Below, one piece after another: positions 1,516 to 16,568 of a stretch of DNA of 20,698 nt. Each line of letters opens with the position of its first letter. Within the stretch, counting starts at the first letter, position 1. The DNA is from Burkholderiaceae bacterium (GTDB lineage Bacteria; Pseudomonadota; Gammaproteobacteria; Burkholderiales; Burkholderiaceae_D). Position numbers and translations under genes: made by a program. The DNA lies in the NCBI GenBank assembly GCA_049672545.1, contig JBATWJ010000176.1, forward strand, positions 1-20,698, given 5' to 3'. The notes under the pieces were generated by a model. It searched no databases. It was not told the DNA's origin and worked only from the letters and a program-made list of their open reading frames with translations.

Positions 1516-4143
1516 TCATGCGAGCCCCTTCAATCCGGACAGATCACGGAAGCGGTCACACTGCCTGCTGAGTGATTCTTCTGGCTTCGTCTCGTCATCC
1601 CATGGAACGATAAACACCGTGCGCTGCTTTTTCGGTTTGCTGCCGAGCGTTACCTCGCGCCGAAATTTCGGCACACGCTGCGCGATCAACTCCGAGAACT
1701 TCGTTATCGACAGCGCCCGGAACCCGTGGCGCTGGCAATACTTCGTGTAGACCATGTGCAGGTCTTCCGACACGCAGCAGCAGTACGGCGCATCCAGTTC
1801 GCCTTGAGACCACGCGGTATAGAACACCTCCCATTCGGGCAGGCCGAAGTTGATGACGCGCTGTTTCGATTCGGTCATCACCGGCCAGGCGTAGGGATCG
1901 AAGTCCCCGGTCGGATATTCCAGCAGGAAGGCATAGAACGCCTCCACCAGGCCATCGCCAAGCGCCGCCTTGATCTGTTCCAGTAGCTGCGGATCGAGCG
2001 GCTGGCGCACATCCACCACCAGCATGCGGCGGTCGTCTTTCTCCAGCGGTAGCGCCTGGAACTCGTTCGACAGCATCACCGCGTTCATGTGGTTCGCCTC
2101 GACGCGGTCGTCCTTGAACTTCTGGCTGATCTGCGTATCGCGGCCGGTGATCATGTGCTTCACCAGGCCGAACCCGGCATACTTGTCCTGCCGCGACAGG
2201 ATTTCCTCGAACAGCACGAACAGCTTTTGCGAGCGCCAGACCGTGTAGTTGCTTTCCAGCTGATTCTGCCCGCCGGTGGCGCCGTGAACGCCATAGATCG
2301 GCTTGACGATCCCCTCGAAGAACAGCGATTTCCCGGTGCCCTGCTTCTCACCGAAGAACAGCAGCGCGGTCTGCATCTTCGCGCCCGGATGTTGGAGCGG
2401 ATACGCCAGCCAGCACAACACCCACTCGAACACTTCCTTGCCGTTCGGCTCCGAAGAACACAAGCTCCACAGCAGGTTCAGCGCCAGCTCCGCCTTCACC
2501 TCGTCGCGCCGTGGCGTCAACGGGAAGCCTTCAAACATGTTGATATGCGTGGCCGGGTCTACGCGTTGCGTCGGATCGAAAACCAGCTTGTCGTAGTCGT
2601 ATTCCCGATGCAGCGGATGACTCAGCCAGCGCGCTGCCAGATCGCCGCCGCGCGCCAGCGCCAGCGCGTCGTAGTGGATCGTGATGCGTTTCTCGAAATC
2701 CCATACCAGCTTCGTTCCATACAGCATCGCGTACCGATCCAGCATGCCGGCCAGCGCCTCGTCCCCCGCCCCCCCGGCATCGGTGGCGACGCCGCGCGAC
2801 AGCTTCGGTAGCGCGCGCGGGCTGATCGTGCGGCGGTCAGCGTGCGCGTCCCAAAAGCGGGCCGACTCCTTGCCGACCATCGCGAGGAAGGCCGGCCGCT
2901 TCATCCGCAGCTTGTTGAGCGAATCCCAAACGTCCGTCGTGCCCTGGATCAAAGCGCAATGCGCCAGCGCCCATTCCAGCGACACGTACCCCATAACCAC
3001 CGGCGCCACACCCGCATCAGGGGGCGCGGGGGATGCTGTGCCGGCGGCGTCATCAATCGACGGTGCATCGACCCAGGGCGGCAGCTGCGCAACCGAGCCT
3101 GCATCAGAGGGCGCGGGAGATTCCACAATGGCCGCCGCGTCAGCTGCCGGCGAGGCCATCAGCTGCGCGCGCACGGCATCCAGCGACTCATGCACGTGCA
3201 GATCGTTGAAGTCGGTCAACTGCGGCAGCGAATCGTCCTTTTTCGTCGCGCGCCGCGGCACCGAAAACACCGGCAGCAGCACCACCGCATTACCGACCGC
3301 GGCAGCGGCTTCCTGCGCCTTCGCCAGCCCCTTGCCGCCGGTCAGATAGTCATCGTCCGCGCAGAAGCGGAACGGGCTGCTCGGATACAGTGCGCGGACG
3401 ATGCGCGCCACCGCCGGCAGCTGGCCGGCATCGAACGCGACGAACACCACCCGGCCACCGGCCGCGCGCACCGACAGCCCGGTGGCATAGCCCTCCACGA
3501 AATCGATGGGCTCGCCATCCGCCGGCGCCGGACCGAGCCGGCAGGCCGCGCCGGACTTGTCCATGCCGGCGCTGTAGCGCTTCTTGCCATCGGCGGCGAT
3601 CAGCTGCTTTCCGACCAGCCGCGCCGGCTCCTCGTCGTAGCGCAACATCGGGATCAGAATCGAGCCGTCCGGCTGGTAGCGGCAGTTTTCGCCAACCACC
3701 TGTTTTCGCACCAGATACGCCGACTCACCGCCACGCGCCGCCCGCCGCCATTGCTCCTGCGCGCGGTTCGCCGCTGCCCGGGCGCGACGCTCCCGCTCGG
3801 CAGACTCTTCAGCCTCGCGTTTCTCACGTTCACGCTGGCGCGCCGCCAATTCCGCCGGCGACGGCAACTCGCCCGGCTTGTCGAAGCGGAAGCCGCGCGG
3901 CTTCGCCAGCGCAAACAGCGTACCGATCCCGACCTTGCCGCCTGCCTTGAACGACTTCCAGACGGCGACCGCGTCATCCGCGTTGTAACTGGCGCCGCGT
4001 TCGCTCCACTCCATCCAGGCTCCGCGGGCATCGTCGCCGAACTCGGCCTTCAGCCCCATCCCGACCTTGATCCATACGTCCCGGTCGTCCGGCGCCACGA
4101 AAGCGAGCGCCTGCCGCGCCTCCTCCAACGTCGCCTGCCTCAT
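1516..4143 (-). CDS. Phage/plasmid primase-helicase, P4 alpha-like (PriCT-2 + Toprim + SF3 helicase)
   Basis: 875 aa. N-terminal PriCT-2-like motif (WIKVGMGLKAEFGD..WMEWSERGASYN..WKSF..GIGTLFALAK). Central Toprim-like segment (VEGYATGLSV..VFVAFDAGQL..FCADDD). C-terminal helicase has Walker A FFGEKQGTGKSLF and a Walker B-like LFVLFEE. The long opposite-strand ORFs here are shadows. Confidence 0.9.
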   Translation of the reverse strand: MRQATLEEARQALAFVAPDDRDVWIKVGMGLKAEFGDDARGAWMEWSERGASYNADDAVAVWKSFKAGGKVGIGTLFALAKPRGFRFDKPGELPSPAELAARQREREKREAEESAERERRARAAANRAQEQWRRAARGGESAYLVRKQVVGENCRYQPDGSILIPMLRYDEEPARLVGKQLIAADGKKRYSAGMDKSGAACRLGPAPADGEPIDFVEGYATGLSVRAAGGRVVFVAFDAGQLPAVARIVRALYPSSPFRFCADDDYLTGGKGLAKAQEAAAAVGNAVVLLPVFSVPRRATKKDDSLPQLTDFNDLHVHESLDAVRAQLMASPAADAAAIVESPAPSDAGSVAQLPPWVDAPSIDDAAGTASPAPPDAGVAPVVMGYVSLEWALAHCALIQGTTDVWDSLNKLRMKRPAFLAMVGKESARFWDAHADRRTISPRALPKLSRGVATDAGGAGDEALAGMLDRYAMLYGTKLVWDFEKRITIHYDALALARGGDLAARWLSHPLHREYDYDKLVFDPTQRVDPATHINMFEGFPLTPRRDEVKAELALNLLWSLCSSEPNGKEVFEWVLCWLAYPLQHPGAKMQTALLFFGEKQGTGKSLFFEGIVKPIYGVHGATGGQNQLESNYTVWRSQKLFVLFEEILSRQDKYAGFGLVKHMITGRDTQISQKFKDDRVEANHMNAVMLSNEFQALPLEKDDRRMLVVDVRQPLDPQLLEQIKAALGDGLVEAFYAFLLEYPTGDFDPYAWPVMTESKQRVINFGLPEWEVFYTAWSQGELDAPYCCCVSEDLHMVYTKYCQRHGFRALSITKFSELIAQRVPKFRREVTLGSKPKKQRTVFIVPWDDETKPEESLSRQCDRFRDLSGLKGLA

Positions 4144-5474: not shown

Positions 5475-5699
5475 TCATTTACGCGCTCCACGCAGGTATG
5501 CCCAGTACTCCGCCATATCCGGACGGAGCTCTTCGCAGGTCACGGCGGAGTTGGTGGCCTGCTCGATCTGGACGCAGCGAGACAGTGGAATCTTGCGCAC
5601 ACCGCGCGCCCATTGGCTGATCAGCGCCGACGGGACGGATAGCACCTTTGCTAGCGCCGCTTGGGCGCCGCTTGGCTTTACGTAGTCGAGTAGTTGCAT
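5475..5699 (-). CDS. Cro / YdaS-like HTH regulator (74 aa)
   Basis: MQLLDYVKPSGAQAALAKVLSVPSALISQWARGVRKIPLSRCVQIEQATNSAVTCEELRPD matches the Cro/YdaS-type pattern (..lgvs.qaVSqW..g.r.iP..r...IE.aT.G.Vt.eeLRPD). It is divergent from the CI-like gene across an operator-containing gap. The longer track start (5786) would cover all the operators and is rejected. Confidence 0.75.
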   Translation of the reverse strand: MQLLDYVKPSGAQAALAKVLSVPSALISQWARGVRKIPLSRCVQIEQATNSAVTCEELRPDMAEYWAYLRGARK

Positions 5700-5706
5700 G
5701 CGCTCA

Positions 5707-5776
5707 ATTATTAGCGATACGCTAAAAAAGAGCAATAGCGTAACGCGAATTCCCAATTTTAGCGTTTTGCTATTGA
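5707..5776. promoter_or_regulatory. OR-like switch region: three operators TAGCG-N3-CGCTA plus divergent promoters
   Basis: O1 is TTAGCGATACGCTAA at 5711-5725, a perfect palindrome. O2 is TAGCGTAACGCGA at 5736-5748. O3 is TAGCGTTTTGCTA at 5760-5772. Their centres are 24 bp apart. Leftward promoter on the minus strand: TTGCTC (5735-5730), 17 nt, AATAAT (5712-5707), overlapped by O1. Weak rightward promoter: -10 TATTGA at 5771-5776, overlapped by O3, with a poor -35 abutting O2. Confidence 0.7.
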
Positions 5777-5784
5777 ATGGCGGC

Positions 5785-6522
5785 ATGTTCCTGACAGTCG
5801 AAGATGTTCGCCGCAGACGCCTTGCTCAACTGGTTGCCAAGTTCGGGGGAGTTAGCGCTCTTGCGTCCAAGATCGAAAAAAGCCCTGCTCAAGTGAGTCA
5901 ATGGCTGAATGCGTCGCCCGATTCCCGCACCGGAAAGCCCAGAGGAATGCGACCTGGCACGTGTCGTCAAATCGAAGAGATATGCGGCGAGCCGCCAGGA
6001 TGGATGGATCGGCCCGACGAAGATGTTGGAGCTGCCGCGGTCATGCAAAACGAACGCGGCGGCCTTTACGATATGAACGTGCGCGCCGCGACAATCGGCG
6101 CGCGCACCATTCCCGTAATTTCAGCTGTGCAAGCAGGGAACCTGCAAGAGATCGCCGACCCATACCCACCGGGCGCCGGCTTCGCGGTCGAATTTATCGA
6201 CGATCAAAGCGGGTATTCGCGCTGGGCCTTCGCACTGGAAATCGACGGGCTTTCAATGCTGCCAGAGTTCCACCCCGGCGACCGCATCATCGTCGACCCG
6301 GAGGTAGCGCCGGCCCCGGGAGATTTCGTGGTGGCCCGCAACACGCACGAGGAAGCGACGTTTAAAAAATATCGACCGCGCGGGATGGATCAGAATGGCA
6401 ACATGATTTTCGAACTCGTCCCGCTGAACCCTGACTACCCGACTATGCGCAGCGACGTGGAGCACCTGGAGATTATTGGGGTCATGGTGGAACACCGGAA
6501 AAAACGGCGACCGAGGCGCTAA
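5785..6522 (+). CDS. CI-like repressor, HTH + S24 (LexA-type) autopeptidase domain
   Basis: Track ORF is 5698..6522. I start it at ATG 5785 (MFLTVEDVRRRRLAQLV...) so that the operators stay non-coding. The N-terminal HTH (SALASKIEKSPAQVSQWLN) resembles the phage CI repressor domain. The C-terminal part carries the S24 signatures GLSMLPEF (catalytic Ser) and ATFKKY (Lys). Confidence 0.85.
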   Translation: MFLTVEDVRRRRLAQLVAKFGGVSALASKIEKSPAQVSQWLNASPDSRTGKPRGMRPGTCRQIEEICGEPPGWMDRPDEDVGAAAVMQNERGGLYDMNVRAATIGARTIPVISAVQAGNLQEIADPYPPGAGFAVEFIDDQSGYSRWAFALEIDGLSMLPEFHPGDRIIVDPEVAPAPGDFVVARNTHEEATFKKYRPRGMDQNGNMIFELVPLNPDYPTMRSDVEHLEIIGVMVEHRKKRRPRR

Positions 6523-6554: not shown

Positions 6555-7271
6555 ATGAAACAGATGCTCTTGCTTGCAATCGTCACAACACTCCTTATCG
6601 GATGTAGCGACCCCCGTGCGACCATGCTTTCCACCGCAGACGCCGATAAAGAAAAAATGCAGACGGCTATGCAGAAAATAACCGAAGAGGAGCGCACTCT
6701 GGTAGCTGGCTACATGATGCGTACCATGTTGGCGAACGCCTTTGCCGGCAAGACCGACACCCCTCTCGGCGTAACTATTGGTGATGCGATCAAGAAGCAG
6801 AGGGAATGGCTGTCGGCCGAAAAAAAGCGAGATGCCGAGGAAGCCGCGCTCAAGGCCAAGCTGGCGGCCGAAGAAGAGGCGTTCCAGCAACAAGTAAACG
6901 GTGCCGTAGCAGTCACGGTGCTCGAAAAAACGCTGCTACCAGAAAATTTCGATCGCCGCCGCTACTCCGCGGTGCAGGTGATCAAGCTAGGGTTTGAAAA
7001 CAAGAGCGAAAAGGACATCGCTGGCATTTCCGGCGAAGTGGCCTTTTACGACATCTTTGACAAGGAAGTCGGCAGCATCATTTTCTCTTACGACGACGGC
7101 ATCAAGGCAGGCTCTACAGCGAGTTGGACTGGTGAGCGTAAGTTCAACGAATTCTTACGCGAGCATAAGGCGCTGGCCAACTTGGAGGAAGGGAAATACA
7201 CGACCCGCTTCAAGCCAGATACGATCGTTTTTTCCGACGGAACCAAGCTAAAAGCCACGCGCAAGGATTAA
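6555..7271 (+). CDS. Prophage lipoprotein (238 aa), candidate lysogenic-conversion / exclusion factor
   Basis: GGGGAGG RBS. Signal peptide with lipobox MKQMLLLAIVTTLLIG|CSD. A charged coiled segment (EKKRDAEEAALKAKLAAEEEAFQQQ) is followed by a beta-rich C-terminal domain. It lies 32 nt downstream of cI on the same strand with no visible terminator between them. Visibly lower G+C than its neighbours. Confidence 0.8.
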   Translation: MKQMLLLAIVTTLLIGCSDPRATMLSTADADKEKMQTAMQKITEEERTLVAGYMMRTMLANAFAGKTDTPLGVTIGDAIKKQREWLSAEKKRDAEEAALKAKLAAEEEAFQQQVNGAVAVTVLEKTLLPENFDRRRYSAVQVIKLGFENKSEKDIAGISGEVAFYDIFDKEVGSIIFSYDDGIKAGSTASWTGERKFNEFLREHKALANLEEGKYTTRFKPDTIVFSDGTKLKATRKD

Positions 7272-7810: not shown

Positions 7811-7862
7811 TTGAAGTAGCGTTACGCTATTTTATCCTTGCACTAAATTTAGCGTTACGCTA
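7811..7862. promoter_or_regulatory. Distal (OL-like) operator pair with a putative rightward sigma70 promoter
   Basis: Two identical perfect palindromes TAGCGTTACGCTA at 7817-7829 and 7850-7862, centres 33 bp apart. Their half-sites match the three operators at 5711-5772. TTGAAG (7811-7816), 16 nt, TATCCT (7833-7838) reads rightward with operator A in its spacer and operator B just downstream. A leftward promoter cannot be excluded. Confidence 0.6.
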
Positions 7863-7950: not shown

Positions 7951-8499
7951 TCAGTAGAGGCTTATGTGCCGGTCGGTTCGTGCGATATCCGTACTGCCGT
8001 CGAGCAGGTCCGGATATTCGTTGAGGTACTGCCAGGCGAAATCGCTGATGTTGTGCGCAAACCCCTCGATGATGCTGCCCTGCGCGGCGGCACGGTAAAT
8101 GATCCGCGCGGCTACCAAACCCTGCACGACGCCATCGTCGATACGCAGTGTATTGCTGCGCGTCTCCTGGCCTATGTAGAACCGGAGTATCTGCTTTTCG
8201 TCTTCAGTCAGAGCGTGCAGGCGCTCCGTCATACGCTGCTGGAACTTCCGCTTTCGCCTCCAGGTGTCGACCAGCGCACCGGCACGGATACATACGCCCA
8301 CCAGCAGCAGCGCGATCGAACCCAGCAACGCCAACCCCATCACCGAGCGATTGTCCTTTGCAAATTGGGCAACGCCGAGGTGCTGCAGCAGTTGCTCGTC
8401 GGCATACAACAGGACCCCCGCCACCACGCCGAACGCCACGAAATAACGTGGCGCCAGCTTCAAGAGCTCCAGCAGCGCCTTGACGATCTCCGCAGTCAT
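7951..8499 (-). CDS. Superinfection exclusion protein B (SieB)-like membrane protein
   Basis: 182 aa. Two N-terminal hydrophobic helices (YFVAFGVVAGVLLY; VMGLALLGSIALLLVGVCI) are followed by a basic patch RRKRKFQQ. Then comes LHALTEDEKQILRFYIGQETRSNTLRIDDGVVQGLVAARIIY, which matches the SieB family pattern (Lt..Ek.iLr.f......t..l..dd.vv.gL....Ii). The codon-aligned plus-strand ORF 7900..8514 is Gln/His/Arg-rich shadow. Confidence 0.75.
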   Translation of the reverse strand: MTAEIVKALLELLKLAPRYFVAFGVVAGVLLYADEQLLQHLGVAQFAKDNRSVMGLALLGSIALLLVGVCIRAGALVDTWRRKRKFQQRMTERLHALTEDEKQILRFYIGQETRSNTLRIDDGVVQGLVAARIIYRAAAQGSIIEGFAHNISDFAWQYLNEYPDLLDGSTDIARTDRHISLY

Positions 8500-8543: not shown

Positions 8544-8876
8544 ATGCAACACAGCATCACCATCCAGATCGACACCGATCAGCTGCAGAACGTCACTGAC
8601 ACTCATCTCGCGACCCTCTGGCACGTCGCCCAAGCCAACCCTGCGCCGCATACCACTCCTGACGCAGGCGCAATAGCAGAAAAAATCGGCCGCGAGATCA
8701 TCCGTCGCTTCCTCGCCACCACCCCGCCAGAGCTGTACTTTCATCAAGGCCGCGACTACTACCATCACACGCTGGTCCAGCACGGCTATTGGCCCGGCCC
8801 CAAGCATGACAAATGGGTTTACGACCCGAGCAAGGGAGTCCAGACGTCTGCACAACCCGCCGAGGTGACCAAATGA
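8544..8876 (+). CDS. Hypothetical protein (110 aa), first gene of the rightward operon
   Basis: Start is ATG 8544 (MQHSITIQ) with GGAGG 6 nt upstream. The track start at 8511 lacks an RBS. Good GC3. Confidence 0.6.
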   Translation: MQHSITIQIDTDQLQNVTDTHLATLWHVAQANPAPHTTPDAGAIAEKIGREIIRRFLATTPPELYFHQGRDYYHHTLVQHGYWPGPKHDKWVYDPSKGVQTSAQPAEVTK

Positions 8877-10375: not shown

Positions 10376-10788
10376 GCGCCGCCGTTTTGACCGCGCTGAA
10401 AGATGCGCAGAAGTGCCTCGCACGCGAGATCGCGCGGCTCGAACAGGCTGCAGGCGGCGCCACAGCTGCTGCCGGGGACTATACGCTCGTGCCGAATCGC
10501 GCCTTGAACGAGCACGTCGGCGCCGCCGTGTTCAACCTGGCCGCCCTGCGATTGAACACCGACCCGCGGCTGCTTGCCGCTCTGAAGCCGCCCGCGCCGG
10601 CCGGGTCCGAGGCTGCCGATTCGGCCGTGTCCGCCGACTGGCGCCTGCAGAGGTTCGGCGCGGAAGACTGGGTCACCACCGCCTTTTTCGTGTCGTTCGA
10701 TGAGGCCTGGGCCGCATACAGCTGGGCATGCAACGCGCGGCCGGAAGCGGAATTCCGTATTGCGTTGCGTGCGAAGGAGTCGTCATGA
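10372..10788 (+). CDS. Hypothetical protein (138 aa)
   Basis: ATGA overlap at 10372-10375. MSAAVLTALKDAQKCLAREIARLEQ... No family recognised. Confidence 0.55.
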   Translation: MSAAVLTALKDAQKCLAREIARLEQAAGGATAAAGDYTLVPNRALNEHVGAAVFNLAALRLNTDPRLLAALKPPAPAGSEAADSAVSADWRLQRFGAEDWVTTAFFVSFDEAWAAYSWACNARPEAEFRIALRAKESS

Positions 10789-11312
10789 GAACACTCCGCC
10801 GCAAACAGCACCGCCCACGCCGCATCGATCCCGCCGGCGGCCTGTCCGTGTTCCTGCGCATGCAGGACCGCGCCGAGAATGCCCGGCCGATCGGCAACGA
10901 CGCCCGCACCGACCTGCAGCTGGCCTACTGGATCAGCTTCCACGCCATGACGCAAGGCGCATCGAGCGAGGAACACTGGTCCGTGGTCGCCGTCTCGCTC
11001 AACGTCGCGCTGATCCTCACCGAACACGGCTTCGGCCGCGAATACGAGCCCTACGTCATCAAGGCGCTGGACGCCGCTTTCCGCGCCCACCAGCGCGGCC
11101 AGCGCACCGGCGCCTGGCGCTACGACGGCGAAGGCATCAACGCCGTGCGCGACGCGCTGGAGCTGCACGACGAGCAGCTGGCCCTGGCCACCAAAGACCA
11201 GGTGCGTGCCGCCCTCGCCGAAGTCAATCGCCGCGTCGACGCCGGCGACGTCTACCAGGCCGTTCCGCTTTCCGCCCCCGCCACCACCACCCCCGAAGGG
11301 ATCGCCTTATGA
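10785..11312 (+). CDS. Hypothetical protein (175 aa)
   Basis: MRTLRRKQHRPRRIDPAGG... ATGA overlap at 10785-10788. It is the C-terminal part of track ORF 10728..11312. Confidence 0.55.
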   Translation: MRTLRRKQHRPRRIDPAGGLSVFLRMQDRAENARPIGNDARTDLQLAYWISFHAMTQGASSEEHWSVVAVSLNVALILTEHGFGREYEPYVIKALDAAFRAHQRGQRTGAWRYDGEGINAVRDALELHDEQLALATKDQVRAALAEVNRRVDAGDVYQAVPLSAPATTTPEGIAL

Positions 11313-11632
11313 GAGTGAACATCTACGCCGAAGAAATGACGGATCGAATCGAGATCATCAGCAAAGAGATCGACGGACGATCCTACACCGGCCTGCGCCT
11401 TTATCTCGAACTGCCCGTCACGCTGCCGGATGGCTCCAACAAGGCCGGCCCATTCATGCACCGTCCCGGCGACGACGACAGCGCTGCCATCACGTTCTGG
11501 GGCAAGCGCGACCTGCGCGCGGTGCTGCGCCAGATGCTGACGAAGCTGGACGAACACTACGGCCAGGCGGCGCCTGGCGCAGCGCAACCCCTTCCGGGCG
11601 CGACGCCCGACAACTCCAGGAGCCCCGCATGA
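11309..11632 (+). CDS. Hypothetical protein (107 aa)
   Basis: MRVNIYAEEMTDRIEIISKEIDGRSYTGLRLYLELPV... ATGA overlaps at both ends (11309 and 11629). The rest of track ORF 10700..11632 is Arg/Pro-rich out-of-frame read-through. Confidence 0.55.
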   Translation: MRVNIYAEEMTDRIEIISKEIDGRSYTGLRLYLELPVTLPDGSNKAGPFMHRPGDDDSAAITFWGKRDLRAVLRQMLTKLDEHYGQAAPGAAQPLPGATPDNSRSPA

Positions 11633-13608
11633 ACACCATCGTTGAACCCGCTTTCGGCATCATCCCGCTCGATCTGATCCGCGAGAGCAAGACTAATCCA
11701 CGCAAGCGCTTTTCCGAAACCGCGCTGGGCGAGCTGGCCGAGAGCATCAATCGCTCCGGCGTCGGCCAGCCGATCCTGGTGCGGCCACTGGCCAATGAAG
11801 ACGGCGAGCCGGCCCACCGCGTCGAGATCGTCGCCGGCGCCCGCCGCTACCGTGCCTCGCTGCTGGCCGGCAAGGACAGCATCCCGGCGATCGTGCGCGA
11901 TATGTCCGACGCCGAGGTGTTGGAATTCCAGCTGGTCGAAAACCTGCAGCGCGAAGACGTCCACCCGATCGAAGAGGCCGAGGGTTACGAGCGGATGATG
12001 TCGGAGCTGCATCTGAACGCCGACCAGGTCGCCGAGAAAGTCGGCAAGAGCCGTTCGTACATCTACGGCCGCCTGAAGCTGTGCGCGCTGACGCCGGACG
12101 CGCGCGAGGCGTTCTACGACGGCAAGCTGTCGGCCAGCACCGCGCTGCTGATCGCCCGCATCCCGGTGCCCGAGCTGCAGGTGCGCGCGATCAAGGATGT
12201 CTGTGGCAGAAACGGCGGCGAACCGATGTCGTACCGGACCGCGCAGAACCACATCAGCCACAACTTTACGCTGCATCTGTCTAAAGCGCCCTGGTCGATC
12301 GACGATGCCGAACTGCTGCCCGGCGCCGGGAGCTGCGCCGCATGCCCGAAGCGCTGCGGCAATCAGCCGGAGATCTACCCGGACGCGCATCCAGACGTCT
12401 GCACTGATCCGGATTGTTTCGATCAGAAGCGCAAGGCTAGTTACGCACGGATCGAGACCACCGCCGCCAGCGACGGCATACCGATTTTTGATTACGAGTC
12501 AACGGAAGGCAAAAACCTAAGAACTAGTGCCGATCACAGTCTTGATTACGAGCAGCTGTATTCGATGGACCGGGAAAAATCCGGCAGCCAGCGTTACCAG
12601 CGCCTCGATGAAGTCCTCTCGCACGACCAACTCCCGCCGACAGTTGCATTTCTTCGGCTCAGCGACGGAAGCTTGACCGGCGTCTACTTGAAGACCGCGA
12701 TGCAGGCAGCGCTGGAGCGCGCCTGCATCTGCTACACCGAAGCCGAGCAGGCAGAGATCGACCGGCAGAACGAGCAATCTGAAGAACCCGAAACCGCGGA
12801 ACAGATCGCAAAGCGCGCGCAAAAGGCCGCGGAGGCTGAGGCTCGCAACCGCCGCGCCGACGAAGAGACCGCGCTGCGCCTCGAAACCTACCGCCGGATT
12901 CGGTCGAAGAATAACGGCATCACCGACGCTGCGCTCCGGTACATCGCTAAAACCTTCCTGTCCGAATATCCCGTTCTCACAGAATTGTCGGAGTTTTACC
13001 CGGACGGCTGCGACCATGAAGCGATCACCAAGATGATCGATACCGCCTCAAGGCCGACGGTGGAATGCATGCTGCTGGACCTGTGCACCTCATTTCTTAT
13101 CTCGGTCGCCACCTGGGAAATCGACAGGACCAACGGCCGCGACGACGAATATCAGGAGCTTGCCGAGTTAGCCAGCGCGCACGGCATCGACATCGAGCAG
13201 GTGCGCGCCGAACTGTACCCGCCGGCACCGCCGGCCGAGCCTGAAGATCAGGCCAAACAGCCAGAGCCGACTGAGGAGCATGCGGATCCTGCCGCCGCCG
13301 CAGATCCTGCGGAACCCGCAAAGGATAGCCACGAGCCCCTCGCGATCGGCGACACGGTGCGCATCAAGGATGGTCTCAAAGGCCCGAACGGCAAGGCGCG
13401 CAAGTGCTGCGGCCGCACCGGCACGATCTCTTCTGCCGTCGACGGCGCCTATGTCGTGACGGTCGGCAAATCCAACCATGCTCAGCTGACACGCGACGAC
13501 CTGGAGAAGGTCCAGCCGGCGGCCGAGCCGCAGGAAGAAGCCAAGCCGGCGGCACCTGCAGATGCATATGCGAACTCGGCGTGGCCGTTTCCGCGGAGGG
13601 GAAGCTGA
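11629..13608 (+). CDS. ParB/Srx N-terminal-domain protein (659 aa) with HTH, Cys cluster and KOW/SH3-like tail; no ParA partner
   Basis: Start is ATG 11629 (MNTIVEPAFGIIPLDLI), an ATGA overlap. ParB box II-like IVAGARRYRA, box III LVENLQREDV, and an HTH (ADQVAEKVGKSRSYIYGRLKL). Cys cluster CAACPKRCGN..VCTDPDC. Acidic/Pro-rich linker. C-terminal IGDTVRIKDGLKGPNGKARKCCGRTGTI. The 141-aa N-terminal extension in track ORF 11206..13608 is rejected. Confidence 0.8.
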   Translation: MNTIVEPAFGIIPLDLIRESKTNPRKRFSETALGELAESINRSGVGQPILVRPLANEDGEPAHRVEIVAGARRYRASLLAGKDSIPAIVRDMSDAEVLEFQLVENLQREDVHPIEEAEGYERMMSELHLNADQVAEKVGKSRSYIYGRLKLCALTPDAREAFYDGKLSASTALLIARIPVPELQVRAIKDVCGRNGGEPMSYRTAQNHISHNFTLHLSKAPWSIDDAELLPGAGSCAACPKRCGNQPEIYPDAHPDVCTDPDCFDQKRKASYARIETTAASDGIPIFDYESTEGKNLRTSADHSLDYEQLYSMDREKSGSQRYQRLDEVLSHDQLPPTVAFLRLSDGSLTGVYLKTAMQAALERACICYTEAEQAEIDRQNEQSEEPETAEQIAKRAQKAAEAEARNRRADEETALRLETYRRIRSKNNGITDAALRYIAKTFLSEYPVLTELSEFYPDGCDHEAITKMIDTASRPTVECMLLDLCTSFLISVATWEIDRTNGRDDEYQELAELASAHGIDIEQVRAELYPPAPPAEPEDQAKQPEPTEEHADPAAAADPAEPAKDSHEPLAIGDTVRIKDGLKGPNGKARKCCGRTGTISSAVDGAYVVTVGKSNHAQLTRDDLEKVQPAAEPQEEAKPAAPADAYANSAWPFPRRGS

Positions 13609-14868: not shown

Positions 14869-14964
14869 ATGCACCCAGCCTTTCTCGCAATCATCAAGCT
14901 GCTTGCCCAGCAGGCAGTTAAAAACCACCTGAACCCACAGCAGCCGAAGCCAGCCCCGAAATGA
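14869..14964 (+). CDS. Possible 31-aa leader/coupling ORF upstream of the integrase
   Basis: MHPAFLAIIKLLAQQAVKNHLNPQQPKPAPK. A GGGGG run lies about 8 nt upstream. Its stop overlaps the integrase ATG (ATGA at 14961-14964), and the integrase has no obvious Shine-Dalgarno of its own. Not in the ORF track because it is too short. Confidence 0.3.
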   Translation: MHPAFLAIIKLLAQQAVKNHLNPQQPKPAPK

Positions 14965-16535
14965 GAGTCGCCGCCTACTGCCGATTTTCGTCCGACGCCC
15001 AGCGCGAGACGTCGATCCGCGACCAGCTGCGCAACATCGAGGTTTACTGCGAGCGCATGGGCTGGCCGACGCCGGCGCTGTACCAGGACCAGGCGATCAG
15101 CGGCGCCCGCAGCGACCGGCCCGGCTACCAGGCCATGCTCGACGCGGCGGCCGTCGACGCCTTCGACGTGCTGCTGGTCGACGATCTGTCGCGGCTGTCT
15201 CGCGATCACATCGAATGCGCGCAGACGATCCGGCGCCTGAAGTTCGCCGGCATTCGCGTGATCGGTGTGTCCGACAGCGTCGACACCGAGCGCGACGGCT
15301 ACAAGCTGGAGACCGGCCTGCGCGGCCTGATGTCCGAGTTCTACCTCGACGACCTGGCCAAGAAGACGCACCGCGGATTGATGGGGCAGGCGCTCGACGG
15401 TTACAGCGCCGGCGGCCTGCCCTACGGCTACACCAGTGTAAGCGATGGCAAGGGATCGAAGAAGGTGATCGACGAAGACGAGGCACGCTGGGTGCGCTAC
15501 GTCTTCGAACGCTACGCGCTGGGCTGTTCGCCGCGCCAGATCGCCGACGAGCTGAACCGCCAGGGCGTGCCCAGTCCGCGCGGCGGCACCTGGGCGCACT
15601 CAGCGCTGTATCCCGACAGCAAGGGCGTCGGCATGCTCGGCAATCCGATCTACAACGGCCGCCAGGTCTGGAACCGCACCGCCTGGACCAAAGACCCGCT
15701 CACCGGCCGCCGGCGCCGCACGATGCGGCCGCAGTCGGAGTGGGTGATCATCGATTCACCCGAGCTGAAGATCATCGACGACGACACCTGGCGCGCCTGC
15801 GAAGCCCGCACGCGCGCCGCCAAGCGCGACACCGCCAGCAAGCGCGACGCGGGCAAGGGACCAGGCGGCCGCGCCCCGAAGTACTTGTTCTCCGGCCTGC
15901 TGAAGTGCGGCAGCTGCGGCGGTGCCTTCGTCATCCAGGGCCGCGACCACTACGGCTGCGCCACGCACAAGGATCGCGGCGCCTCGGTCTGCAGCAACGG
16001 CCTGAAGGTCAAGCGCGCCACGATCGAGCGCGTGCTGCTGGCCGGCGTGAAGGAAACCTTGCTTTCCGAAAACGCCTACCGCGCCTTCGAAGCCGAAGCG
16101 CGCAATCTGTTGAAGCTGGCCAAGCCGGACCCGGCCAACGCACGTCGACGCCTGGCCACCGCGAAGAAGGAACTCGACAACCTGATGGCGGCCATCAAGG
16201 CCGGCATCGTCACCGCCACCACCAAGGCCGTACTGGAAGAAGCCGAGCGCCAGGCGGCCGCGGCCCAGCAGGAGCTGAAGACGATCGAGCAATTCGAGCC
16301 GACGCAGCTGCTGCCGCGCGCCAAGGAAATCTATCAGGGATTGGTTGCCCAGCTGGAAGCCGTCGACGACATAGCGGCCGCGCGCGAAGCCTTGAAGGCG
16401 CTGATCGGTGAAGTGAGGATGCTGCCGGAAAACGGCATGCTGACTGCAGAAATACAAAACGCCGGACTGGCCGGCGCTTGTGGAATAACTGTGGTTGCGG
16501 GGACAGGATTTGAACCTGTGACCTTCGGGTTATGA
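14961..16535 (+). CDS. Large serine recombinase (phage integrase type)
   Basis: 524 aa. N-terminal resolvase catalytic domain (MRVAAYCRFSSDAQRETSIRDQ...VLLVDDLSRLSRD). Recombinase domain (GGLPYGY...WVRYVFERYA). Zinc-ribbon CGSCGGAFVIQGRDHYGCATHKDRGASVCSN, then a coiled-coil. The last 44 nt are antisense to tRNA-fMet (C-terminus ...VAGTGFEPVTFGL). Confidence 0.9.
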   Translation: MRVAAYCRFSSDAQRETSIRDQLRNIEVYCERMGWPTPALYQDQAISGARSDRPGYQAMLDAAAVDAFDVLLVDDLSRLSRDHIECAQTIRRLKFAGIRVIGVSDSVDTERDGYKLETGLRGLMSEFYLDDLAKKTHRGLMGQALDGYSAGGLPYGYTSVSDGKGSKKVIDEDEARWVRYVFERYALGCSPRQIADELNRQGVPSPRGGTWAHSALYPDSKGVGMLGNPIYNGRQVWNRTAWTKDPLTGRRRRTMRPQSEWVIIDSPELKIIDDDTWRACEARTRAAKRDTASKRDAGKGPGGRAPKYLFSGLLKCGSCGGAFVIQGRDHYGCATHKDRGASVCSNGLKVKRATIERVLLAGVKETLLSENAYRAFEAEARNLLKLAKPDPANARRRLATAKKELDNLMAAIKAGIVTATTKAVLEEAERQAAAAQQELKTIEQFEPTQLLPRAKEIYQGLVAQLEAVDDIAAAREALKALIGEVRMLPENGMLTAEIQNAGLAGACGITVVAGTGFEPVTFGL

Positions 16536-16568
16536 GCCCGACGAGCTGCCAGACTGCTCCACCCCGCG
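16492..16568 (-). tRNA. Initiator tRNA-fMet (anticodon CAU), 77 nt with encoded CCA
   Basis: The reverse complement reads CGCGGGGTGGAGCAGTCTGGCAGCTCGTCGGGCTCATAACCCGAAGGTCACAGGTTCAAATCCTGTCCCCGCAACCA. This is near-identical in layout to E. coli tRNA-fMet. It has the C1xA72 mismatch, three consecutive G-C pairs closing the anticodon stem, and a CUCAUAA loop. Confidence 0.95.

Follow-up and report, generated by a model that had tools for sequence, protein, structure and literature searches.

What does a ParB-family protein do on an integrated prophage that carries no ParA? The question is raised by a 659-codon gene, referred to below as parB, in a 20,698-nucleotide (nt) stretch of DNA from a Burkholderiaceae bacterium (contig JBATWJ010000176.1; hereafter the window), which comprises the right arm of a lambdoid prophage and adjoining host genes. 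An earlier note, made from the letters of the DNA, had listed several possible roles for the product: a DNA-sliding regulator of the KorB or Noc type, a nuclease, or an anti-defence or host-takeover factor. Our analysis indicates that the gene probably encodes a ParB-family clamp that is gated by cytidine triphosphate (CTP), slides along DNA independently of ParA and works on the chromosome of the phage itself, and that a 16-bp palindrome, one copy of which lies within parB itself, is likely to be the docking or loading site of this protein. Of the roles listed, the sliding regulator fits best, and we favour it because a conserved parS-like site was found.

The parB open reading frame (ORF) has no internal stop codon; its start shares ATGA with the gene before it, and the following ORF begins at 13605. 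Its product consists, in this order, of a ParB_N domain, a helix-turn-helix (HTH) domain of the HTH_ParB type, a four-cysteine (Cys4) knuckle, an alpha/beta and helical domain, a disordered linker, an SH3/KOW-like barrel, a low-complexity tail and a WPFP motif. The gene and its parts are located as follows (aa, amino acids):

11629–13608, + strand: parB-like gene, 659 aa (translation; Pfam, NCBIfam and PHROG matches; AlphaFold2 (AF2) model with a predicted local distance difference test score (pLDDT) of 88.7).
11836–11856, + strand: Box II or P-motif, G70-A71-R72-R73-Y74-R75-A76 (GARRYRA), with Ala at the catalytic Glu position of GERR.
11938–11958, + strand: Box III, ENLQRED; N105 and R108 invariant in 120 homologues.
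11953–12207, + strand: HTH_ParB DNA-binding domain; recognition helix GKSRSYIYGRLKLC kept across the family.
12334–12417, + strand: Cys4 knuckle, C236-x2-C239 ... C258-x4-C263 (CxxCPKRxGNQPE...VCTDPDC); these four Cys invariant, 120/120.
12418–13233, + strand: post-knuckle alpha/beta and helical domain, aa 264–535; confident model, no PDB or Pfam match.
13336–13518, + strand: SH3/KOW-like beta barrel, aa 570–630; an optional module in relatives.
13582–13593, + strand: C-terminal peptide W652-P-F-P655, part of the family motif (A)AWPFP(T/K/R)G seen in homologue alignments.

Judged from its sequence, the protein is a genuine ParB with a full nucleotide pocket and an HTH. In the Pfam scan, ParB_N (PF02195) spans aa 12–107 (E=5e-26) and HTH_ParB (PF17762) aa 109–193 (E=2e-17). 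Among the NCBIfam models, the generic ParB model TIGR00180 passes its cutoff (143.5 bits against 58.45), the Noc model TIGR04285 stays below its own (146 bits against 315), and so does the PRTRC ParB model TIGR03734 (137.4 bits against 278.6, with profile positions 5–239 of 555 matched). The clamp-pocket residues Q47 (the Box I Gln, equivalent to MxParB Q52), G70, R72/R73, N105 and R108 are kept among the 120 homologues, Q47 being invariant. The closest solved structures are ParB–CTP clamps of the chromosomal type (Thermus, Myxococcus, Bacillus, Caulobacter; 38–43% identity), followed by Noc and KorB. The N-terminal third is therefore a ParB, as the note had claimed, and the motifs that it quoted are all present: VAGARRYRA (aa 68–76), LVENLQRED (aa 102–110), CAACPKRCGNQ...DVCTDPDC (aa 236–263) and GDTVRIKDGLKGPNGK (aa 573–588). 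Its five-Cys cluster did not survive the alignment of the homologues: position C243 is Thr in the family consensus, which leaves a Cys4 knuckle, a feature also present in the PRTRC ParB and in the VarioGold, Aval and Comamonas phage proteins.

Box II bears on what such a clamp would do once closed. The note had suggested that the replacement of the Glu of GERR by Ala may alter nucleotide turnover, and this suggestion is strengthened by the fact that Ala71 is the very change present in MxParB E93A and CcParB E102A; indeed, the PDB entry 7o0n, which matches with the segment AGARRWRAS, is the engineered MxParB E93A mutant. In MxParB, E93 is the general base for CTP hydrolysis. The E93A protein keeps its affinity for CTP and barely hydrolyses it; its rings close even without parS, leave DNA slowly and spread over 125 kb, compared to 33 kb for the wild type. 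CcParB E102A likewise binds CTP without hydrolysing it and is 'clamp-locked', with an off-rate about 15-fold slower. Both mutants are unfit in chromosome segregation. Given the Ala at the catalytic position, the retention of Q47 and the behaviour of these mutants, the window protein is predicted by homology to bind CTP without efficient hydrolysis, i.e. to stay closed on DNA for long. Within the family GARR is found in a minority and is not a general trait: 110 of the 120 homologues have GERR and eight have GARR.

A palindrome scan of the window and of the first homologue loci yielded the same 16-mer in all of them, GTGCAGACGTCTGCAC, which serves as reference below. The 16-bp palindrome, GTGCA(G/C)ACGTCTGCAC in its general form, accompanies parB in two independent sets of loci. 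In the window it is matched at three positions (no strand assigned), compared to 0.15 expected, and no shuffled sequence attained three matches:

12389–12404: parS-like copy inside parB, ATCCAGACGTCTGCAC, 2 mismatches to the reference; covers codons H254–T259.
8838–8853: parS-like copy, GTCCAGACGTCTGCAC, 1 mismatch (site scan); lies within the same-strand operon, 2.8 kb upstream of parB.
19–34: possible third copy, weak and uncertain, GTTCAGACGTTTGTAC, 3 mismatches; degenerate, 11.6 kb from parB.

The loci derived from genomes gave 126 matches with at most 2 mismatches (79 loci, 1.37 Mb), against about 0.4 expected when the expectation is computed as 1129 neighbours/4^16 per position. These matches fall at preferred places: a copy lies inside parB in 53/76 genome loci, within 3.5 kb upstream in 35/76 and at −5 to −10 kb, past the primase gene, in 26/76, with almost none downstream; in related phages, the distal copy is 7–9 kb upstream of parB. 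The replication set from IMG/VR, 80 viral loci, contained 168 matches compared to 0.2 in shuffles, with the same three position peaks; 57 of these loci have the copy inside the gene and 72 have at least one copy outside it, and at least 13 IMG/VR contigs are common to the site scan and the ParB scan. In the complete 39-kb genome of Variovorax phage VarioGold, six copies (at most 2 mismatches) are distributed over the whole chromosome. One, a perfect copy, follows the major capsid gene; the others are between the Q module and the primase gene and in tail J, the spanin gene, parB and ssb. The copy next to the major capsid gene sits in a short intergenic gap directly 3' of it, both in VarioGold (L081, 5756–5771) and in Acidovorax phage Aval (L082, 20625–20640; variant GTGCACACGTGTGCAC). 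The densest array was seen in a 33.5-kb viral contig, L092 (IMGVR_UViG_3300046616_000611), which has at least five perfect copies, two of them (3671–3686 and 3731–3746) 60 bp apart.

The copy inside parB overlies the (S)-A-D-V-C-T codons of the Cys motif. Under this copy, Ser is encoded by AGT in 24 of 27 cases, compared to a background of 7% in the same genes, and Ala by GCA in 32 of 34 cases, compared to 17%; GAC and GTC are enriched likewise. No such bias is seen at the two synonymous positions that come next, beyond the 16-mer. Since rare synonymous codons are enriched under the site and the flanking positions are not biased, the DNA sequence itself is under selection there.

Which protein reads this palindrome? 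Sites are present in loci where ParB carries the recognition helix typical of the family, [KR]S[RK][SA]Y[IV]Y[GAS]RLKL, and absent from those with a clearly divergent helix (Paraburkholderia, Verrucomicrobia, PRTRC). No convincing common motif emerged when alternative palindromes were sought in divergent relatives without the 16-mer (Paraburkholderia, Verrucomicrobia and others), so the co-variation of helix and site is one of presence and absence. It is conceivable that the palindrome is the operator of another conserved phage protein, acts as a signal in replication or packaging, or forms an RNA hairpin, ParB itself binding elsewhere or non-specifically. The evidence linking site and protein is indeed all correlative; in addition, a hairpin of 6 bp could form from GUGCAG-ACGU-CUGCAC, and in two phages the highly expressed capsid gene is directly followed by a copy. 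However, what is kept is the sequence and not just the pairing, positions 6 and 11 varying independently, which speaks against an RNA stem. Moreover, the 16-mer tracks the type of the ParB recognition helix, one copy is held inside parB by synonymous-codon selection, the CI operators vary among phages whereas the 16-mer does not, no other gene is conserved across the loci, and the length, dyad symmetry and central ACGT of the palindrome are those of a parS-like site. We therefore consider a site unrelated to ParB to be quite improbable, and the palindrome to be the likely loading site of the phage ParB.

We then asked whether the protein could serve partition. ParA was not detected in any of the places where it was looked for: a Walker A motif occurs in no real ORF of the six-frame translation of the window, Pfam scans of the window ORFs turned up no ParA/CbiA family member, and five homologue loci, like the complete genomes of VarioGold and Aval, have no ParA gene. 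Of the 120 homologues, none shows the ParA-activating motif [LFI]G[KR]G[LFI] in its first 80 residues, and the N-terminus ahead of Box I is very short in the window protein. Nor does the window contain the canonical chromosomal parS (TGTTTCACGTGAAACA, up to 3 mismatches), or PRTRC genes A–F and ThiF, unlike pPNAP01. Conversely, the right end of the element has the features of an integrated phage:

14961–16535, + strand: large serine recombinase (integrase), the end gene of the operon on the parB side (domain scans).
16492–16568, − strand: tRNA-Met overlapping the 3' end of the integrase gene; likely attachment site and right end of the prophage.

The tRNA-Met covers the last 44 nt of the recombinase gene, whose C-terminus (…GTGFEPVTFGL) is thus tRNA-encoded, and this overlap is likely to be the attachment site. 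To the right lie the host genes NUDIX, aat, ate, pyrD and carbonic anhydrase. Because the recombinase gene ends inside the tRNA-Met and host genes follow, the element is an integrated prophage; on this point, as on the absence of ParA from the window, the earlier note was right.

True partition would require the element to be a part-time plasmid whose ParB uses a ParA encoded outside the window or the ParA of the host chromosome. The window is a single contig that lacks the left part of the phage, and a replicon of the same phage type has been deposited as a 36.9-kb circular plasmid (Comamonas odontotermitis 'plasmid unnamed2', NZ_CP083453.1; our locus L084), which would suit such a scheme. 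Yet that replicon also encodes an integrase, the window element ends in a tRNA-Met with host genes beyond, VarioGold, which has an attP and is mitomycin-inducible from the chromosome, is ParA-free in its complete sequence, as is Aval, and the ParA-activating motif is missing from all 120 homologues. The partition reading is thus already largely refuted, and we give it hardly any credence. Note that L084 is a complete phage of this type (terminase, VapE primase, CII, S24 repressor, long ParB, integrase), and is either a phage that was excised or induced or one capable of episomal persistence.

The family of the window protein is very large, so that 'orphan' holds only in the sense that no ParA accompanies it. 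A word-indexed search returned more than 3600 matches, the best at 40–50% identity over the full length and mostly from Oxalobacteraceae; at least 173 IMG/VR stretches encode relatives. The region that follows the HTH (aa 195–540) has 4857 clusters at 50% identity and begins at about residue 190–220 in the full-length matches, i.e. it is always fused behind a ParB module. The five homologues whose contigs were inspected are in prophages with the same gene order and without ParA; the arrangement cI → … → parB → xis/int recurs in Burkholderiales prophages and in the isolated integrating phages VarioGold (VG_p35) and Aval (gp06c). The architecture is a common one, not an oddity, and the ParB family of PRTRC systems has its N-terminal 270 aa, Cys4 included, in common with it.

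In its C-terminal two-thirds the protein departs from ParBs of known structure. The AF2 model, built as a monomer, has a pLDDT of 88.7 for the whole protein and 86.9 for aa 195–659. It consists of the ParB N-domain and HTH, the Cys knuckle and a long helix, an alpha/beta and helical domain extending to about aa 530, a disordered acidic and Pro-containing linker (aa 540–567), a five-stranded barrel (aa 576–627) and a disordered tail with the WPFP peptide. A PDB fold search with the middle domain (~340 residues) gave nothing below E=1e-3, and no Pfam family matches it. The barrel matches SH3-like/KOW barrels only (NdhS, template modelling (TM) score 0.74; SPT5 KOW, TM 0.76, root-mean-square deviation 1.9 Å), with weak E-values of 6e-3 to 2e-2. 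The KOW/SH3-like tail proposed earlier is thus present in a confident model, with matches of the right kind albeit weak ones. In the monomer models, the confidently predicted helical domain (aa 355–529) and the SH3-like barrel show no homology to known ParB C-terminal domains.

These C-terminal parts are exchangeable. The AAWPFP(T)G peptide is nearly universal in aligned relatives, and the module ahead of it may be an SH3-like barrel, an H-NS DNA-binding domain, another module or none. Within the group of homologues P0015, P0089, P0102, P0109, P0114 and P0116, some have, instead of the barrel, an H-NS C-terminal DNA-binding domain (PF00816, TWTGRGRQPxW), and Massilia-type members have a third type of module (DLVxxLxKAAxxxGYxY). 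As to WPFP being a docking motif common to other phage proteins, it is essentially confined to ParB ORFs in the fetched loci. Many relatives, including VarioGold, Aval and the PRTRC ParB, align to aa 1–290 only. The GC content at third codon positions (GC3) of the window gene falls from 0.87 (aa 1–194) to 0.74 (aa 195–540) and 0.72 (tail), with a minimum of 0.55 at aa 261–300 (nt 12409–12530). The coincidence of the alignment boundary at aa ~290 with this drop supports the view that parB is a modular, mosaic gene, and bears out the codon shift and mosaic fusion that had been noted.

How does this protein relate to systems that have been characterized? Chromosomal ParB/Spo0J proteins (Myxococcus xanthus, Thermus, Caulobacter) are its best matches over aa 12–193, with Boxes I, II and III and the HTH, and they too have a 16-bp palindromic site with a central ACGT, a copy of which lies within parB. 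By contrast, the phage protein has neither ParA nor the LG(R/K)GL motif, its half-sites differ, and where chromosomal ParBs have a short linker and C-terminal domain it has some 460 additional residues. The ParB of PRTRC systems (TIGR03734; plasmids and integrative and conjugative elements (ICEs)), an orphan and uncharacterised protein, is 33% identical over aa 12–267, including the Cys4 (C..C....GNQ...C....C), but its recognition helix differs, the 16-mer is absent and the C-terminal halves are unrelated. VarioGold VG_p35 and Aval gp06c share the ParB_N–HTH–Cys4 core (42–46% identity over aa 7–288), the position between cI and int and the same palindromes, whereas their C-terminal regions (in proteins of 771 and 953 aa) diverge past aa ~290 and both have GERR.

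Two non-partition proteins offer closer functional parallels. KorB of the IncP plasmid RK2, a structural match (8qa8/8qa9), is a ParB-family CTP clamp that regulates genes from scattered palindromic sites; multiple palindromes are likewise present here, with 2–3 copies in the window and six in VarioGold. KorB also ends in an SH3-like domain. It differs in being plasmid-borne, in recognizing a 13-bp OB palindrome and in working with IncC (ParA) and the clamp-locking co-repressor KorA, whereas the window protein has no ParA- or KorA-like neighbour and may have 'locking' built in through the Glu-to-Ala change. The second parallel is BisD of ICEclc (Pseudomonas putida), which loads at palindromes located inside genes of the integrated element and slides over ~50 kb (PMC12409273). 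BisD resembles the phage ParB in being an orphan ParB-like protein of ~550–650 aa that serves a non-partition function on an integrated mobile element, in having an N-terminal ParB CTP module and HTH, a linker and an extra helical C-terminal domain without known homologues, and in using palindromic loading sites inside genes, a few kb apart (PMC12409273). It has, however, a divergent P-motif (GNTR) and no Cys4 knuckle, its site is the palindrome GAGCTATCCCCnGGGGATAGCTC of 23 bp, and it depends on a partner, BisC (PMC12409273); the phage ParB, for its part, has an N-terminus close to chromosomal ParB, a 16-mer with a copy inside parB, and a temperate phage as its host element. Since sites and C-terminal domains differ, the phage ParB is a member of neither the KorB nor the BisD family.

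The regulatory setting of the gene is given by the repressor and its candidate operators:

5698–6522, + strand: CI-like repressor (HTH and Peptidase_S24), on the same strand as parB.
5712–5772, no strand assigned: three CI-type operators, OR-like, between cro and cI (operator scan).
7817–7862, no strand assigned: two CI-type operators (TAGCGTTACGCTA, twice), OL-like, in an AT-rich gap upstream of the parB operon (operator scan).

The − strand carries the tail-completion gene, a primase-helicase gene (PriCT_2/Toprim/DUF5906) and cro, and the + strand cI (S24), a lipoprotein gene, small ORFs, a deoxynucleoside monophosphate (dNMP) phosphatase gene, parB, three small ORFs and the large serine recombinase gene. 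The 13-bp repeat TAGCGNTACGCTA is present in three copies 24 bp apart between cro and cI and in two copies 33 bp apart; its 10 matches compare to 0.82 expected. This layout of OR- and OL-like groups is λ-like, and judged from position only the parB operon would then probably be a CI-repressed 'early-left' operon.

We propose the following course of events for the clamp. Upon induction or infection, the operon would be derepressed; ParB dimers would attach to the palindromes by means of the HTH, take up CTP, form closed rings and slide off. With 2–6 loading sites on each ~40-kb genome, such rings could coat the early region or the entire phage genome. In the window protein, in which the Glu of GERR is Ala, the rings would open slowly and travel far, making it a natural 'clamp-locked' variant. 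The C-terminal parts (helical domain, SH3-like or H-NS-type module, Lys/Ala/Pro-rich tail, WPFP) may provide dimerisation, non-specific DNA bridging and partner docking. By analogy with KorB on RK2 and BisD on ICEclc, the clamp would most likely serve not partition but the control of phage transcription over long distances and/or the compaction of the phage DNA.

Several points weigh against this proposal. CTP binding, ring closure and binding of the 16-mer are inferred from homology and co-occurrence, and so is the biological role of the protein. The link between site and protein is a correlation, and another conserved phage protein could read the palindrome; moreover, neither of the two main sites in the window matches perfectly (they have 1 and 2 mismatches, with C at position 3 in each case), and the distal copy there is uncertain. 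The C-terminal region would act in dimerisation only putatively, the models being monomeric. The timing of expression rests on the positions of the operators, and a SieB superinfection-exclusion gene (7951–8499, − strand; PF14163, E=7e-28) lies between the OL-like operators and the first + strand ORF, so that early-left transcription would read antisense through it. Finally, when the same-strand ORFs from −5 to +7 kb of parB were clustered over 78 loci, no KorA-, BisC- or ParA-like neighbour appeared, and only the repressor gene recurred widely (44 loci). The absence of a conserved partner gene adjoining parB weakens the analogy with KorB and BisD in its strict form; this negative covers neighbours, a distant or unlinked partner being possible, and did not include a search with the BisC sequence.

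The same clamp and sites could have a physical purpose, i.e. ParB could coat replicating phage DNA and condense or individualise it, through host SMC or as a ParB condensate, thereby aiding replication, concatemer resolution or packaging, or shielding the DNA from host nucleases and silencers. The spread of the sites over the whole VarioGold chromosome and the Aval copy next to the capsid gene are compatible with this purpose, as are the C-terminal modules, which are typical non-specific DNA binders (H-NS C-terminal domain, SH3-like barrel, Lys/Ala/Pro-rich tail). The N-terminal domain, moreover, is 40–45% identical to that of chromosomal ParBs, and chromosomal ParBs load SMC. However, SMC contact and condensation are conjectural, and in most loci the sites cluster in the early region, although late regions lay mostly outside the fetched flanks and whole-genome coverage was limited to two phages. 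We regard a purely physical purpose as unlikely. A broader version of the sliding-clamp proposal seems possible but doubtful to us: a ParA-free 'ParB–parS chromatin' system, in which the clamp would mark the phage chromosome as self from a few sites. The site inside the gene could not be separated from the protein by recombination in mosaic genomes, the swappable tails and WPFP would recruit or exclude host machinery (RNA polymerase, SMC, silencers, nucleases) genome-wide, and the window protein would be a naturally hydrolysis-dead form selected for the very 'clamp-locked' state that is lethal in chromosome segregation.

Finally, we considered an enzyme or effector built on a ParB fold: a nuclease, an NTP-dependent toxin, an anti-defence factor, or an activator of a DNA-modifying enzyme as in the 5mYOX-associated phage ParBs. 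The ParB-CTPase fold has repeatedly been put to new uses, and in phages ParB-like proteins serve as activators of thymidine dioxygenases; in addition, parB is located in the accessory early-left region and adjoins a dNMP phosphatase gene. The window protein nevertheless keeps its HTH, which the 5mYOX partners lack, together with all the clamp motifs, no conserved modifying enzyme or other partner lies nearby, PADLOC gave zero matches for ParB or its neighbour genes, and the palindromes argue for site-specific loading. Such a function is very improbable in our view, and the nuclease and defence-system roles put forward in the note receive no backing from PADLOC or from the neighbouring genes. 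A ParA-independent sliding clamp accordingly remains the reading that we prefer.

Non-partition ParB-type CTP switches are a young field, worked out only for KorB, VirB, Noc and BisD. A 2025 survey reported many orphan ParBs of unknown role on prophages, and in the VarioGold paper the parB gene is annotated only. A ParB–CTP clamp on a mobile element is of a known kind; what is new is the candidate 16-bp loading site and a natural variant predicted to be hydrolysis-dead. Neither the 16-mer nor any ParB/parS-like system of a temperate phage was found in the literature searched. One of the largest groups of orphan phage ParBs is thereby made testable, with a candidate site, a conserved three-site layout and two culturable phages, VarioGold and Aval, and the Glu-to-Ala variant is a ready comparison of hydrolysing and non-hydrolysing clamps. 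The locus also provides a clear example of a site kept within the coding sequence of its putative binder through synonymous-codon selection. If the clamp does control phage transcription or DNA organisation, it would add a new regulatory layer in lambdoid-type temperate phages of Burkholderiales.

A few observations concern the neighbouring genes. The ORF at 10700–11632 (+ strand) was examined as a single 310-aa partner protein and rejected as a high-GC long-open-frame artefact, its first 200 aa being rich in Arg and Pro; the true genes upstream of parB are probably 10728–11312 (phrog_20828) and 11312–11632 (phrog_20753), the latter overlapping the parB start. At the other end of the window, one ORF separates the tail-completion (gpZ/Neck1-like) gene region (345–959 and 908–1519, both − strand) from the primase gene, and it is in place of the tail-completion gene that related phages have the Q antiterminator, HNH and terminase genes. 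The prophage may thus be rearranged or partly deleted, which would possibly explain its degenerate distal parS-like copy. Lastly, the lipoprotein gene (6555–7271, + strand; signal peptide and Cys, MKQMLLLAIVTTLLIGCSD…) lies directly 3' of cI, at the position of λ rex, and is probably a lysogen-expressed moron.

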